The translations under genes and the position numbers were made by a program. The notes under the pieces are model-generated. The model was not told the DNA's origin. It did no database searches and saw nothing but the letters and a program-made list of their open reading frames with translations. Below, one piece after another: positions 7,752 through 13,863 of a DNA stretch of 33,827 nucleotides (position 1 is the first letter of the stretch; every line of letters begins with the position of its first letter). Origin of the DNA: an uncultured Bacteriovoracaceae bacterium (GTDB taxonomy: Bacteria > Bdellovibrionota > UBA2428); NCBI GenBank assembly GCA_964538275.1, contig CAZIFW010000026.1, positions 1 to 33,827 on the forward strand, given 5' to 3'.

Positions 7752-9092
7752 GTGGATCGGTGCATCGCTAGAAATCTTTTTTGCTTTCTAATTTATGTCT
7801 TGTTTTTTTCAAGCCCATTAGATGCACAAAGTAAGTTATTTAATTCTAAAACTTTAAAAGAGCTGAATGCAAAATTAGAAAAAGAATCTTTTTTAGGTGT
7901 TGCTGGAGCTCGCTATGAATCATCAATTTGGTCCGGGGTGGCGGCTGTAGAAACGAGAGCCTACCCTTGGTCTAAAAGTTGGTGGCGAAAAATTGATTTA
8001 AAGTGGCCAAAGGATCGAGCAGAAAATCCTTATTACCCAGGCACGGTTCCAGCGTATTACTATGAAGGCTCTGGAGACGAGTTACTTCTTATCTTTGGAA
8101 CAAGTTTTGGAACCGTAGGAAGAGGAACATGGTACCGAAAGTTTTTAAAAATTATTCGAGAAAGCCATCCCAATTCTTCAGTCCTAATTTTTCCGGGTTA
8201 TCTTTCAAAAGAAAATTTATTAGATGCTAAACCCTATTTTGCAGATTCAGGCGTTCGTTTTGTTTCCCGGGATATTTTAATACGAATTGAAAATTTTCTT
8301 TCTCAGAAAGCACTCTTAGGAAAACAGTATCGAAAAGTGGGGAGTGTAGGACTTTCAGGTGGCGCATCTTTGGTGCTTAGAATGTTACACTTCAATCGAT
8401 TCTTAAGTCGTGAGTCTGGTTGGTATCCCTATCTTTTAAATTGGGGCAATCTGGCTTTGAGTCCTGTTATGAGTGCATCAGCAGCGGCGGATGTATTGGA
8501 TGCGCAGGCGGATTATTTAGAAGCGCAAAAAAGAGTGAATTCTCACTTTGATATTGAAGATTGGTTTGTGCGCAAAGTCTTGGGGGGCTTGTTACCTTGG
8601 AATAAAAAGCTCACCACAGAGTATATGTTGGAACTTACGCGAGAGCCCGAGCGACCTGTATATCAAGAGTTACAAGGCTTAGTGGCGTATTCTGTGATTC
8701 ATGAGTTGGCGCAGTTTACTCGTCTGCAAAGTCCAGAATACAAAGGTCGTTTAAGATATAAGGATTATTACGAAGATTTTGCTCATCCCCGCCTGAAGCA
8801 AATTTTAGGCAATTCTTTCAATATGAGCTTTGAAGAGTATTCTTCTTTTTATGATTCTGCTCGATCGACTCGTGGGCCTTTGCGTTTAGTTTTTGCCGAG
8901 GACGATCCCATTCTTTCAGTGCGAGGGGTGCTTGCCCCCGAAGAAAGAGGACATCCTAAGGTTCTCAGGGTTTTACAAGCCTATAAGGAGAATCCTGCGG
9001 CTAGGGTGGATTTACTGCGATTTGGGGGTCATTTGGCCTACTTGGTAGATAATGATTATGTGGGTAGCTTGTTCCGAGAGACCTTCCGCTAA
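7752..9092 (+). CDS. Secreted protein with a serine-hydrolase-like GxSxG motif (alpha/beta-hydrolase-like).
   Basis: GTG start. A signal peptide is present (ARNLFCFLIYVLFFSSPLDA|QS). The motif VGLSGGAS resembles a nucleophile elbow. I recognise no named family. Confidence 0.4.
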   Translation: MDRCIARNLFCFLIYVLFFSSPLDAQSKLFNSKTLKELNAKLEKESFLGVAGARYESSIWSGVAAVETRAYPWSKSWWRKIDLKWPKDRAENPYYPGTVPAYYYEGSGDELLLIFGTSFGTVGRGTWYRKFLKIIRESHPNSSVLIFPGYLSKENLLDAKPYFADSGVRFVSRDILIRIENFLSQKALLGKQYRKVGSVGLSGGASLVLRMLHFNRFLSRESGWYPYLLNWGNLALSPVMSASAAADVLDAQADYLEAQKRVNSHFDIEDWFVRKVLGGLLPWNKKLTTEYMLELTREPERPVYQELQGLVAYSVIHELAQFTRLQSPEYKGRLRYKDYYEDFAHPRLKQILGNSFNMSFEEYSSFYDSARSTRGPLRLVFAEDDPILSVRGVLAPEERGHPKVLRVLQAYKENPAARVDLLRFGGHLAYLVDNDYVGSLFRETFR

Positions 9093-9209
9093 AAGTATCC
9101 TCCAGTTTTGTTCTCAGCCGCTCATGGAGCTCGCCTGGCCACATATATTATTTTACTTCATCTCTAGGCTTGAGATATTTCAAAACATGGAGCATAGTAG
9201 CTCCCCTAT

Positions 9210-9461
9210 ATGGTCGTAATTCGTTTAGCACCCGGAGGCAAAAAACATAACCCTGTATATCGCATTCACGTTGCGGATAAAGGCGCGAAACTCTGTGGTC
9301 GTTTCTTAGAGAAACTTGGAACTTATAAGCCTGGAAAATCAGGTTTTTTCACAATCAATGAAGAGCGTTATACGCATTGGGTATCTAAGGGCGCTCAGCC
9401 TTCTGAAACTCTTGCGAAGCTCTTAAAAGACAGCAAAAAAGCCGCAGCAAAAACTGCGTAA
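9210..9461 (+). CDS. rpsP: 30S ribosomal protein S16.
   Basis: MVVIRLAPGGKKHNPVYRIHVAD...RFLEKLGTYKP...HWVSKGAQPSETL matches the S16 consensus. Confidence 0.9.
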   Translation: MVVIRLAPGGKKHNPVYRIHVADKGAKLCGRFLEKLGTYKPGKSGFFTINEERYTHWVSKGAQPSETLAKLLKDSKKAAAKTA

Positions 9462-9485: not shown

Positions 9486-10025
9486 TTGGAAAATAGAGAT
9501 CCTAGTCTTCAAAATTCAAAGCTGATTGCACTTGCGCGTCTCATAAAGCGACATACATTCAAGGGTAATAAATGGAAAGCAGTCGCTCACTCTGGCTTGG
9601 CTGCTCCTTGGTTTAAAAACATCAAAAGTATTTATCTAGAAAACAAAGCGGTAGATGTAAGAGTGGAGGTTCCACTCAGTCATACGTCTGAGTTTTTTGT
9701 GAATTTTCCAGAAGGCTTTGAGCCGCCCGCAAAAGCTGATTTTTACATTGAACGCGCCTTATTTCCTAAATTGGATGGAGCAGATTTTTATATTTGCGAT
9801 TTGATGGGAGCCGAAGTGAAAACTTCAGTGGGTCCTTTTAGGGTTGTGGCCTATTTTGAAAATGGCGATCCTTCGAAGGGTGCGACAGCTATCAATTTAT
9901 TGCTTGAATCTGTAGAAGGTGATGATTCTAAAAAACTAGCTGTTGAAGTTCCTCTTCCACTCTTAAAAAGAGAGATGGATACTTGGATCGTTGAAGATAT
10001 AGAACTTTGGTTGGATCATGAATAA
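9486..10025 (+). CDS. rimM: 16S rRNA processing protein RimM.
   Basis: It sits between rpsP and trmD. The PRC-barrel-like C-terminus (DFYICDLMGAEVKTSVGPFRVVAYFENGD) is present. The start is probably TTG. Confidence 0.75.
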   Translation: MENRDPSLQNSKLIALARLIKRHTFKGNKWKAVAHSGLAAPWFKNIKSIYLENKAVDVRVEVPLSHTSEFFVNFPEGFEPPAKADFYIERALFPKLDGADFYICDLMGAEVKTSVGPFRVVAYFENGDPSKGATAINLLLESVEGDDSKKLAVEVPLPLLKREMDTWIVEDIELWLDHE

Positions 10026-10908
10026 AATCGAAATTCTCACTCTATTTCCCGAGCCCGTTCAGAGTGTTTTGGATTCTTCCATACTTCGTCGAGCTCAAGC
10101 CAAGGGTATTGTAGAATTGCATGCAAAAGATTTGCGCGCATTTGGTGTTACTAAACATCGCAACGTAGACGACACTCCATTTGGGGGTGGGCCAGGTATG
10201 TTGATTCGCGCCGATGTACTCGAAGCTGCTATTCTTGATAGTTGTGAAAAAGCTGGCGGCCGCGAAAATGTGAAAGTTATTTATGCTTCCCCTCGAGGAG
10301 TGGAAATTGCCCAAGGTCTTTGCCAAAGCTTTGCAGATTGGTTGGTACAGGGGACCCCCTCTTTAGGTCATCTTGACCTAAAAGAAGGTCCTCCCCAACC
10401 GGAGCTAACTGTAAGACCTCCGGTCTTAACAAACCCCAAAGAGGGGGGTCCCTCTTTGGGGACCCGACACTTGGTTTTTGTGTGCGGACGTTACGAAGGA
10501 ATTGATGAGCGCTTTCTGGAGAAGTGGGTGGATTTTGAGTTTAGTCTTGGAGATTTCATTCTTACTGGCGGCGAACTGCCTTCCTTGGCCTTTGTAGATG
10601 GGATTGTGCGCCTTTTACCTGGGGTGCTGGGTGATGAGCGCTCCTCGCGCCAGGAGAGCTTTACCCATGGTTTATTGGAGCATCCTCAATACACAAAGCC
10701 TCGTGAGCTCAATGGGGTTTCAGCCCCTGAGCTTTTACTTGAGGGGCATCATCTCAAAATGGAAGAATGGAAGTTAAGGGCTAGCTTAGCGCTTACTTTT
10801 GCATTTAGGCCGGATTTGATTCGGGCTCATAAGGGTGAGGGTTTTCCCAAATGGGCTTTAGCTCTTTTGGCTGAGCTTCAAAAGCGCCTCCAGAACCGCG
10901 GCGTTTAG
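10018..10908 (+). CDS. trmD: tRNA (guanine37-N1)-methyltransferase TrmD, carrying a ~41-aa in-frame insertion.
   Basis: LTLFPE, FGGGPGM, VCGRYEGIDERF and LTGGELP motifs are present. It overlaps rimM by 8 nt. It is 296 aa against ~250 aa for the typical protein. Confidence 0.9.
   Translation: MNKIEILTLFPEPVQSVLDSSILRRAQAKGIVELHAKDLRAFGVTKHRNVDDTPFGGGPGMLIRADVLEAAILDSCEKAGGRENVKVIYASPRGVEIAQGLCQSFADWLVQGTPSLGHLDLKEGPPQPELTVRPPVLTNPKEGGPSLGTRHLVFVCGRYEGIDERFLEKWVDFEFSLGDFILTGGELPSLAFVDGIVRLLPGVLGDERSSRQESFTHGLLEHPQYTKPRELNGVSAPELLLEGHHLKMEEWKLRASLALTFAFRPDLIRAHKGEGFPKWALALLAELQKRLQNRGV
10350..10466. repeat. GC-rich compound palindromic element inserted in-frame inside trmD.
   Basis: GGGGACCCCCTCTTT (10351-65) faces AAAGAGGGGGGTCCC (10438-52) as an inverted repeat. 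Nested hairpins sit between them: TAGGTCA-TCT-TGACCTA, CCGGAG...CTCCGG and AGACC-TCC-GGTCT. A further GGGTCCC-TCTTTG-GGGACCC hairpin follows. The element is far more GC-rich than its surroundings. Confidence 0.55.
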
Positions 10909-11003: not shown

Positions 11004-11438
11004 ATGCAAAGTCTTGATAACGTTAACGCCGCATTCAATAAAAACAAAGAACTTCCGCCTTTCAAGGCTGGAGATAAAGTTGTCGTAAAGTCTAAAATCA
11101 AAGAGGGCGACAAAGAGCGTGTTCAAGCTTTTGAAGGCGTTGTGATTTCTCGTCAGGGTCGTGGCGTAAGCGCTACCTTCACTGTAAGAAAAGTTTCTGC
11201 AGGCGTAGGCGTAGAAAGAATTTATCCTTTAAACTCTCCCAACATTGTGTCTGTAGAGCGCAAAGTTGAAGGTTTCGTTCGCCGCGCTAAACTTTACTAC
11301 ATCCGTGATCTCGATGGTAAAGCAGCTCGTATTCAAGATAAGAACATTCGCTTGATGGAAAACAAAGGCGCAACAGCTGCAAGTGCTGAAGCTAAAGCGG
11401 CAAAAAAAGCTAAAAAAGAAGAAACTGCTGCTGAGTAG
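11004..11438 (+). CDS. rplS: 50S ribosomal protein L19 with a Lys/Ala-rich C-terminal tail.
   Basis: FKAGDKVVV...[31 protein letters not shown]...SP matches the L19 consensus. The C-terminus has an extra [15 protein letters not shown] tail. Confidence 0.9.
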
Positions 11439-11466
11439 TTCTTCAAGTCTAAATTGAGTTAAAGAA

Positions 11467-11509
11467 AAGGGTGCTAGCCATTTAAGGCTGGTACCCTTTT
11501 TTGTTTTTA
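11467..11509 (+). terminator. Rho-independent terminator after rplS.
   Basis: GGGTGCTAGCC-ATTTA-AGGCTGGTACCC forms a stem with two mismatches, followed by TTTTTTGTTTTT. Confidence 0.5.
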
Positions 11510-11555: not shown

Positions 11556-12311
11556 TTGCTTTGCAGATTGTTGCGCACTCTTTGCCTAGATAGTTTTTCT
11601 TTTGTGGCTCTCGCTAAAAAAAGTCCTTTAACTGCTCTTTCAGATGCGCAGTTTTTAAAAAAAACTTCGGGCTGGATCGTAGGTTTGGATGAAGTGGGTG
11701 CTGGTTGTCTCTCGGGGCCTTTATGTGTGGCGGCTTTTGCGTTTCCAGTGGCGCATGCGGCCAATATAAATTTTCCAGTTCGTATAACGGATTCAAAAAA
11801 GCTCACTCCTGAAAAAAGAGTGGAAGCCGCAGAACTTTTAAAAGTCGTACCTGAGTGTTTTTACAAACTTTTGTGGCTCGATGTTGCTGAGATTGAAACT
11901 ATAAACATTTACTGGGCGCGAATGAAAGCTTTTTGGACTCTCATCCTAGAACTCGATGAGAAGTTTTCGAGTGAGGCTTTCTATTTTGTGGACGGGCCGA
12001 AATTGGGAATAAAACACGGAGTTACTCCTGCTGTTGATGCTCTTGAAATGATGGAAATTGAAAAAAGAATTTTAGCTCAATCCAAAGCAGATTCTAGTTT
12101 TTTTGCTGTGGCTGCTGCCTCTATTCTTGCCAAGGTAGCGCGCGATCAGCTGATTTCAGAAATGGCCTCAGAGTTTCCGCACTACAACTGGGAAAAAAAT
12201 AAAGGTTATGCAACACCAGATCACATTGAAGCCATTCGCTTGCACGGAATTTGCGAGCATCACCGTAAAACATTTTGTGGCAATTTTATTGGAGCTCAAG
12301 CTGAATTATGA
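11556..12311 (+). CDS. rnhB: Ribonuclease HII.
   Basis: The motif GLDEVGAGCLSGPLCVAAF matches the RNase HII catalytic N-terminal motif GxDEAGRGxLxGP. The true start is probably internal, e.g. the GTG near 11604, because the upstream part of the ORF has no homology-like features. Confidence 0.8.
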   Translation: MLCRLLRTLCLDSFSFVALAKKSPLTALSDAQFLKKTSGWIVGLDEVGAGCLSGPLCVAAFAFPVAHAANINFPVRITDSKKLTPEKRVEAAELLKVVPECFYKLLWLDVAEIETINIYWARMKAFWTLILELDEKFSSEAFYFVDGPKLGIKHGVTPAVDALEMMEIEKRILAQSKADSSFFAVAAASILAKVARDQLISEMASEFPHYNWEKNKGYATPDHIEAIRLHGICEHHRKTFCGNFIGAQAEL

Positions 12312-13515: not shown

Positions 13516-13863
13516 ATGAGGCATCAAAGAATATACAAAGGTCTTGCTGGAGAGGAGCGGGCTGCCCAATACCTCGTAGACAATGGCTACGAGGTATTGG
13601 CGCATGATTGGAAGCATCCGGAATTTAGGATTCAAATTGATTTAGTCGTTCGTCGTTCGGGACGAGCCTATATTGTAGAGGTTAAAAATCATAAATGGTC
13701 GGGCAGTGGTTTTGAGCGATTGATGAGCTGGAAACAACGCGAGCGTTTGGTGCAATTAGCTCGTAAATTAAACGATAAAAAGTTTGCTTCAACCCGTTGG
13801 GGTTTTCTTTGGGTTTGGGTCAGTGGACGTAGTTGTCAGGTTCTTGAATCGCACGAATTTTAA
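13516..13863 (+). CDS. yraN: UPF0102 / YraN-family endonuclease-like protein.
   Basis: GEERAAQYLVDNGYEVLAHDWKHPEFRIQIDLVVRRSGRAYIVEVKNHKW matches the YraN (PD-(D/E)xK-like) family. It sits in the typical position downstream of rnhB. Confidence 0.75.
   Translation: MRHQRIYKGLAGEERAAQYLVDNGYEVLAHDWKHPEFRIQIDLVVRRSGRAYIVEVKNHKWSGSGFERLMSWKQRERLVQLARKLNDKKFASTRWGFLWVWVSGRSCQVLESHEF

Follow-up and report, generated by a model that had tools for sequence, protein, structure and literature searches.

Rickettsia palindromic elements (RPEs) are in-frame segments of palindromic DNA, about 100-150 bp long, that lie in housekeeping genes and are translated into an extra surface segment, leaving the catalytic core intact; they are multi-copy, with a conserved peptide in each family, and 44 copies are inserted in the Rickettsia conorii genome (PMC10969869). 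Template switching is another source of palindromes, which is reported to make perfect stems and simultaneous changes of both arms in one event (PMC8794818). Lineage-specific loop insertions, in turn, are located at a turn between two secondary-structure elements, keep the catalytic motifs and are usually stable clade markers. Here we analysed an in-frame palindromic insert in trmD, which encodes the essential tRNA (guanine37-N1)-methyltransferase, in a 33,827-nt stretch of DNA from an uncultured Bacteriovoracaceae bacterium (assembly GCA_964538275.1, contig CAZIFW010000026.1). The whole stretch is referred to as the window and its sequence as W, and it was compared with the eleven relatives for which DNA was available (L001-L010 and L114), all of which are syntenic. 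The known kinds that it comes closest to are template-switch hairpin genesis and lineage-specific loop insertions, and the insert is probably not a mobile element. We lean, with no more than modest confidence, towards a hypervariable, indel-tolerant and disordered TrmD loop whose DNA turns over by template-switch inverted duplication and palindrome deletion, while selection keeps the reading frame.

The host gene (10018-10908, forward strand) encodes a TrmD of 296 amino acids, which matches PF01746 (E=8e-43), aligns with the TrmD structures of the Protein Data Bank (PDB) at E about 1e-55, and retains the motifs SPRG, GRYEG(I/V)DER and GGE. The Pfam profile match is split into two stretches and the PDB TrmDs cover only residues 2-105 and 150-271, leaving ~44 residues without a counterpart at a place where a turn of about 4-10 residues is usual in canonical TrmDs. 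The extra in-frame segment, which the initial annotation had detected by eye together with a correctly quoted peptide, was thus borne out. The catalytic motifs are intact as it had stated, with P92, R93, G94, G157, R158, E160, G161, D163, R165, G184, G185 and E186 invariant in alignment A1. The nearest homologues are annotated as metagenome-assembled genomes (MAGs) of Bdellovibrionota. The AlphaFold2 model, built with a 37-sequence alignment, has a confident TrmD core, and its best Foldseek matches are TrmD structures (probability 1.00). In this model, residues 112-150 form a coil between the helix of residues 99-111 and the strand of residues 151-155, with a predicted local distance difference test (pLDDT) score below 50 for residues 117-143, in agreement with the proposed Pro/Gly-rich, non-conserved loop.

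The insert (QGTPSLGHLDLKEGPPQPELTVRPPVLTNPKEGGPSLGT; approximately 10348-10464, forward strand) spans residues Q111-T149 and adds ~40 codons, or ~117 nt in frame, between the SPRG and GRYEG motifs, which mark AdoMet-binding loops. Its DNA is a nested palindrome, as initially described, with a long inverted repeat and internal hairpins. The inverted repeat, GGGGACCCCCTCTTT/AAAGAGGGGGGTCCC, has 19-nt arms at 10349-10367 and 10435-10453, which are 84% complementary and include a perfect 9-nt core; three inverted repeats of such a pattern were found in the window, as compared to 0.3 expected. Module 1 is a 47-nt quasi-palindrome (10350-10396) centred on TCT (10371-10373), in which a perfect 9-bp inner stem, TTTAGGTCA/TGACCTAAA (10362-10382), is accompanied by the outer stem GGGGACC/GGTCCTC(CCC). 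Module 2 (10398-10428) consists of two short overlapping hairpins with 7-bp stems, ACCGGAG/CTCCGGT (10398-10424) and TAAGACC-TCC-GGTCTTA (10412-10428). Module 3 (10434-10461), the strongest element of the insert, is the perfect 12-bp hairpin CCCCAAAGAGGG-GGGT-CCCTCTTTGGGG. This hairpin had not been singled out before; the trailing GGGTCCC/GGGACCC hairpin that was listed does exist as a pair, but is imperfect (79%). The 5' arm region of module 3 also serves as the right arm of the long inverted repeat, and the left arm of the latter doubles as a direct repeat of 10442-10460 (79%). The insert is built by repetition of a single unit, about GGGGACCCCCTCTTTAGG, which alternates in orientation and forms both inverted and direct repeats, and the peptide mirrors this copying in GTPSLG/GGPSLGT and LKEGPP/PKEGGP.

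The palindromy exceeds the shuffled expectation. The minimum free energy of 10339-10468 is -63.7 kcal/mol, as compared to -45.9 +/- 4.3 kcal/mol in dinucleotide shuffles (z=-4.15), and none of the 200 shuffles folded as well. Since Gly (GGN) and Pro (CCN) codons are mutual reverse complements, we also compared 10339-10482 with synonymous recodings of the same peptide in the codon usage of the window (z=-6.3, 0/300 as good) and with codon-order shuffles (z=-5.1). The real sequence surpassed both, and the palindromy therefore belongs to the nucleotides and is no side effect of the Gly/Pro-rich peptide; the recoding control rules out a trivial outcome of GGN/CCN complementarity. A GC content far above the local average, which the initial annotation had reported, was not found, as the value of 0.53 in the insert compares with 0.49 in the whole of trmD, 0.42 in the window and up to 0.54-0.56 in other parts of trmD. 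An assembly artefact was rejected, given that the same protein is recorded from both NCBI and Logan, and that homologous palindromic modules occur in independent assemblies. By inspection, we also rejected an integron attC site, a target of a diversity-generating retroelement and a CRISPR-like array: there is no R-box-like consensus, the changes are indels and not adenine-specific substitutions, and there is no repeat-spacer array.

The loop is hypervariable among the relatives. Measured between W-L-V and x-L-V-F-V-C-G-R-Y-E-G, it is 7 residues long at its shortest and 54 at its longest in the window and ten relatives, with almost no sequence conservation. W, L001 and L002 have TrmD cores with 95-97% identity and neighbourhoods with about 80% nucleotide identity, while their loops, of 41, 28 and 28 amino acids, have only parts in common. 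L002 is without exactly PSLGHLDLKEGPPQ (W 10355-10396), an in-frame segment of 42 nt that corresponds to the first quasi-palindrome, is bounded by CCCC(C) runs and folds with z=-4.0. Module 2 is common to W and L002 (36 nt at 89%; TTAGACC-TAC-GGTCTTAA in L002), and all that L002 has of module 3 is a 5' arm that has diverged, CGACAAAGAGGA, with unrelated sequence on its 3' side. L001 is without modules 2 and 3; it has module 1 in common with W (19 nt identical), with 21 extra nt inside it. At the place of the module 3 3' arm, a P-H-(N/D) motif is common to L001 and L002, and this arm thus seems to be derived in W. From these alignments, whole palindromes appear to be the unit of change, with module 1 missing in L002 and modules 2 and 3 missing in L001.

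Such changes are concentrated in trmD. The 17.2 kb of synteny between W and L002 contain four indels of 9 nt or more, of which only the 42-nt indel of trmD is palindromic; none of those in coding sequence is larger. Three of the four indels of 9 nt or more in the 10.1 kb of W-L001 synteny lie inside the trmD loop. Thus, the loop is a site-specific hotspot, rather than the reflection of a genome-wide habit. L009 is essentially without the insert. More distant relatives such as P0014-P0020 have none, so the segment was gained at some point. A metagenome-contig search with TrmD, which was dominated by the generic pattern EHPQYTKP, returned mostly TrmDs of ~40% identity and no new insert-bearing close relative.

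The initial annotation took the insert for a mobile element of the RPE or MITE (miniature inverted-repeat transposable element) type. In its present form, this explanation would assume one or more ancient in-frame insertions of an RPE-, MITE- or REP-like element in the ancestor of the clade, the family now being extinct, rare or diverged, and we regard it as quite unlikely. The layout is MITE-like, with a 19-nt, 84% inverted repeat around about 67 nt and a total of about 105 nt, and the gain implied by the insert-free P0014-P0020 is what such an insertion would leave. The insert also resembles RPEs in being in-frame palindromic DNA of ~117 nt (z=-4.2 and z=-6.3 in the two main controls) that is compatible with the host fold as a predicted disordered loop, and RPEs are a precedent for insertions of this sort in housekeeping genes (PMC10969869). 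However, RPEs occur in multiple copies in unrelated genes, whereas no copy of a module was found outside trmD in the 33.8-kb window, and the 131.7 kb of clade DNA from 11 genomes yielded no significant match beyond trmD either. The search of the genome itself covered these 33.8 kb only, in which zero copies would be unremarkable, and thus not decisive, at the RPE density of about 1 per 29 kb in the R. conorii genome of about 1.27 Mb. No other host protein emerged from an exhaustive phmmer search with the 39-residue peptide against 1.84 billion representative proteins, which yielded only two spurious, unrelated repeat proteins. The module 3 hairpin with a free loop, CCAAAGAGGGN4CCCTCTTTGG, had 23 matches in 185,579 species-representative genomes but none in Bdellovibrionota, a weak negative, as the genome of the window is outside this collection. 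All 23 matches are in MAGs of Oscillospiraceae, Clostridia or Bacteroidota. Among these, a hairpin CCAAAGAGGG-N4-CCCTCTTTGG has copies on six or more contigs of a single Oscillospiraceae MAG (JAZOBQ01: L012, L014, L017, L024, L025 and L026) and in several related MAGs, suggesting a repeated hairpin or terminator-like family in that group that is unrelated to the window.

The ends of the insert also speak against a mobile unit. The left arm AGGGGACCCCCTCTTTAGG (10349-10367), which had been considered a terminal inverted repeat, overlaps the conserved codons Q-G-T-P-S-L-G, and its GGGGACC, encoding Q-G-T(-P), is present in L001 and L003 despite their having no right arm. Because the left arm persists in relatives without the right one, the segment was not inserted as a single unit bounded by terminal inverted repeats. 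RPEs are present or absent as one unit with defined ends, but the relatives hold different subsets of homologous, differently assembled modules at exactly the same site, with whole modules varying between close relatives. No target-site duplication was recognised: the sequence GGGGACCC occurs at 10350 and again at 10458-10465, but this recurrence is inside the repeat unit and does not flank it. Moreover, an ancient insertion alone would not explain young, perfect palindromes.

The same holds for the other families of mobile or repetitive palindromes. Bacterial MITEs and REP, BIME and REPIN sequences are likewise short, with a terminal inverted repeat, strong hairpin potential and alternating units, but they are dispersed, mostly intergenic and multi-copy (REP-type palindromes measuring 20-40 nt), often with target-site duplications or GTAG motifs and a related transposase or RAYT, and none of these features was found for the trmD insert. 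Specifically, the called genes of the syntenic loci include no transposase or RAYT-like gene, the hairpin census of the window and relatives revealed no family of similar hairpins, and the modules are intragenic and without a GTAG motif. PARCELs are also dyad-symmetric coding DNA whose copy number varies within open reading frames (ORFs), but they consist of a 25-residue amphipathic motif repeated in tandem, occur in often membrane-targeted proteins whose function is unknown, and are spread through horizontal transfer (PMC2996958). Judged from this family definition, the insert differs in having neither a 25-residue unit nor a fixed array, and in encoding a Pro/Gly-rich predicted coil in a single essential enzyme. 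The initial annotation had named two outcomes that would count against a mobile element, namely a homologous insert of similar protein sequence but without palindromic DNA in all close relatives, or the absence of other copies anywhere together with palindromy at the shuffled level; neither was encountered cleanly.

Palindromy of the loop DNA recurs in several lineages, but is not universal. The folding z score is -7.2 in L010, -4.2 in W, -3.1 in L005, -2.9 in L007 and -2.2 in L006, followed by -1.5 in L003, -0.7 in L004, -0.1 in L008, +0.6 in L001, +1.3 in L002 and +1.5 in L009. The L010 palindrome has 24-nt arms with one mismatch, and L005 has its own perfect 11-bp hairpin, cognate to module 3 of W. 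In the trmD loop of L006 (P0010; 637-690), three tandem GGTCA(A/G)GGTGACC units encode a repeated G-Q-G-D and are nested in the longer quasi-palindrome GACCGCGAAAAAGGTCA ... TGACCTTTCGAACGGTC. The arms of L010, module 3 of W (12/12), the stem of L005 (11/11) and the nested palindrome of L006 are taken to be young, lineage-specific palindromes. A centre homologous to that of module 1, G-x-x-D-L or GGTC(A)NNN(T)GACC in the DNA, is found in L001, L003, L005, L006, L007 and L010. We anchored the loci on this G-x-x-D centre and counted the paired positions among the first 20, for which chance gives about 7.5. The count is 18 in L010, 16 in both L003 and L005, 15 in W (module 1), 14 in L001, 13 in L007, 10-11 in L006 and 7 in L004. 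The older module 1 palindromes thus look as if they are decaying, L004 being at the chance level and L001 and L007 intermediate. The outer arms vary in sequence between lineages yet stay complementary, with several Watson-Crick pair types at equal distance from the centre across the loci. If the module 3 hairpins of W and L005 are orthologous, they differ by three changes affecting both arms and by no single-arm change within the 11-bp stem.

These patterns raise the question of whether selection maintains the hairpins as a cis-acting structure, in the DNA or in the transcript of rpsP, the ORF at the rimM position, trmD and rplS, with the peptide a tolerated by-product. Possible roles would include an mRNA processing or stability element that sets the ratio of TrmD to ribosomal proteins, pausing of the ribosome within the TrmD knot core, or an antisense terminator. 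The fold far beyond synonymous recodings is what such selection would produce, as are hairpins at the same place in W, L003, L005, L006, L007 and L010 whose arms differ but remain complementary through several pair types, the exclusively two-armed differences between the W and L005 module 3 stems, and a hotspot of palindromic indels that has no parallel elsewhere in 10-17 kb of synteny. In addition, module 3 read on the minus strand (10461-10434) is directly followed by TTTGTT and scores as intrinsic-terminator-like; no minus-strand gene that it might terminate was identified. On the other hand, L001, L002, L004, L008 and L009 have no significant fold, and L009 has essentially no insert; therefore, any function of the hairpins is dispensable. 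The position, number and sequence of the hairpins vary between lineages. No match was found to Rfam across the window at the gathering thresholds, and the sole match at permissive thresholds was a chance miRNA-like hairpin (E=0.1). In the long stem of L003, G:T and A:C mismatches, counted by eye, are equally frequent (three each), revealing no bias towards pairs that a sense RNA would tolerate. Finally, the very long perfect stems suggest recent copying at the DNA level over long-term selection on RNA. Taken together, we consider a selected structure unlikely as the explanation.

We therefore return to the local turnover of palindromes by template switching, which we prefer with the reserve expressed above. 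The loop is hypervariable, gains and loses modules, is palindromic at the nucleotide level, shows no dispersal and is predicted to be disordered. In the proposed mechanism, template switching or fold-back copying at replication would produce reverse-complement copies of adjacent loop sequence, and a single event could create a perfect hairpin or re-perfect an existing one. The palindromes would then decay by point mutation, and hairpin-mediated slippage from one short flanking repeat to the other would excise some of them entirely. Palindromes are known substrates for deletion between such repeats. Given that trmD is essential, only in-frame products would survive, and their translation would give a disordered loop, rich in Pro, Gly and Asp, from which no function is required. 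The initial palindrome would make the site prone to more events, which may explain why the hotspot persists at one position.

Two features of module 3 are consistent with template switching. Its perfect reverse-complement stem in W (12/12) faces a single diverged arm in the sister L002, and the clustered changes between W and L005, provided that these hairpins are orthologous, alter both arms. Multi-base changes of both arms, perfect stems opposite sisters with one arm or none, and local copying are characteristic of template-switch quasi-palindromes (PMC8794818). PMC8604942 and PMC7202029 further describe arms that are homogenised or extended by such mutations, and PMC8604942 links template switching between the arms of inverted repeats to coding-sequence change in yeast. 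The template-switch cases described are mostly in RNA genes, reporter genes and scattered yeast or primate loci, unlike the present putative events, which are concentrated, in many lineages, in a single loop of a bacterial enzyme that is essential, and amount to about 50 codons.

Several points weigh against this explanation. The sample comprises only 11 loci with DNA. The 5' arm of module 3 in W also differs from that of L002, so module 3 may have changed in either direction and through one or more events. Generally frequent template switching in these genomes would be expected to mark further tolerant loops within the 10-17 kb of synteny, yet none is affected, and a site-specific property or selection is still needed. 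The maintenance of module 1 in three lineages and the compensated-only differences in module 3 fit selection for pairing as well.

The knot core of E. coli TrmD comprises residues 81-161 (PMC8162576). As residue 150 of our protein aligns to residue 112 of the 1p9p chain, which is inside this core, the insert would lie within the trefoil knot and lengthen its core by up to about half. A combined explanation would then be that the hairpin cluster is a maintained functional nucleic-acid structure in the knot core, acting as a translational pause that aids co-translational formation of the deep trefoil knot or as an internal mRNA element controlling how much TrmD is made in relation to the neighbouring ribosomal proteins, and is regenerated by template switching; we hold this to be very improbable. 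TrmD of Corynebacterium diphtheriae (PDB 7kff, a chain of 308 residues of which 249 are modelled) aligns in a single stretch, 3-269 to 18-283, and the equivalent of its GRYEG motif is near chain residue 163, as compared to about 110-130 in other TrmDs. It may thus have a disordered insertion of its own, of about 35-40 residues, at an approximate position upstream of GRYEG.

Selection on the protein was considered as well, in which the loop would provide TrmD with a surface for interaction or regulation that is specific to the lineage, the palindromy being incidental. A weak peptide motif, G-x-x-D-L with (G/S)-P-P after it, is seen repeatedly in different lineages, and the apparent ~35-40 extra residues of the C. 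diphtheriae enzyme suggest that other phyla may also tolerate insertions around this position. However, the range of 7-54 residues with almost no sequence conservation, the predicted disorder, a palindromy far above what the peptide requires and the absence of any loop in L009 all argue to the contrary, making this explanation highly improbable. The initial annotation had offered a lineage-specific structured loop as its alternative to a mobile element. This came closer to our observations but was incomplete: the loop is hypervariable and not fixed by lineage, and its palindromy is real and recurrent. Like other loop insertions of this kind, the insert is at a turn between two secondary-structure elements and keeps the catalytic motifs. 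Whole modules change at 95-97% core identity, unlike in the usual clade-marking loop insertions, and the DNA is strongly palindromic.

The surrounding DNA holds a ribosomal-protein operon in the order rpsP, an ORF at the rimM position, trmD and rplS, followed by rnhB. The genes rpsP (9210-9461; S16), rplS (11004-11438; L19) and rnhB (11556-12311; RNase HII) were confirmed by Pfam. The ORF at the rimM position (9486-10025, 179 amino acids) overlaps the start of trmD by 8 nt and has no Pfam match, nor is any on record for the orthologous ORFs of the relatives. It encodes either a strongly diverged RimM or some other protein. Upstream of rpsP, a 446-residue ORF (7752-9092) has no Pfam match, and its position is kept in the relatives by an ORF of 422-497 residues, likewise without Pfam matches. 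A 49-nt intergenic stretch upstream of rpsP (about 9097-9145) is present in W only, as compared with L001 and L002, and is not palindromic (z about 0). Just 3' of rplS, a 17-pair stem followed by a T-run (11463-11502) is the probable operon terminator, and different perfect hairpins occupy the equivalent place in L002 (11415-11444) and L005 (7338-7371). The longest perfect hairpin of the window, with 14 bp (CCAATACCTCGTAG-ACAATGG-CTACGAGGTATTGG; 13566-13600), is inside a UPF0102/YraN-like gene (13516-13863), where it encodes QYLVDNGYEVL. It is kept in several relatives (L002 13503-13537, L005 10450-10484) and broken in L007, in which the protein differs; it seems to be a coincidence of coding that conservation of the protein has preserved.

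Before palindromic DNA found in frame within a housekeeping gene is labelled a mobile element, its copy number should be checked. If the hairpins were instead a maintained structure, the locus would represent a coding-embedded regulatory structure that evolves through palindrome turnover. If the preferred turnover by template switching is correct, trmD of this clade would be a clean bacterial example of template switching building coding sequence, up to about 50 codons, in an essential conserved enzyme, with the stages of birth, decay and excision seen side by side in close relatives. In addition, the TrmDs of the clade differ naturally in the length of the knotting loop, with about 0 to about 50 residues added, and this series is usable for relating loop length to the folding of the TrmD knot.

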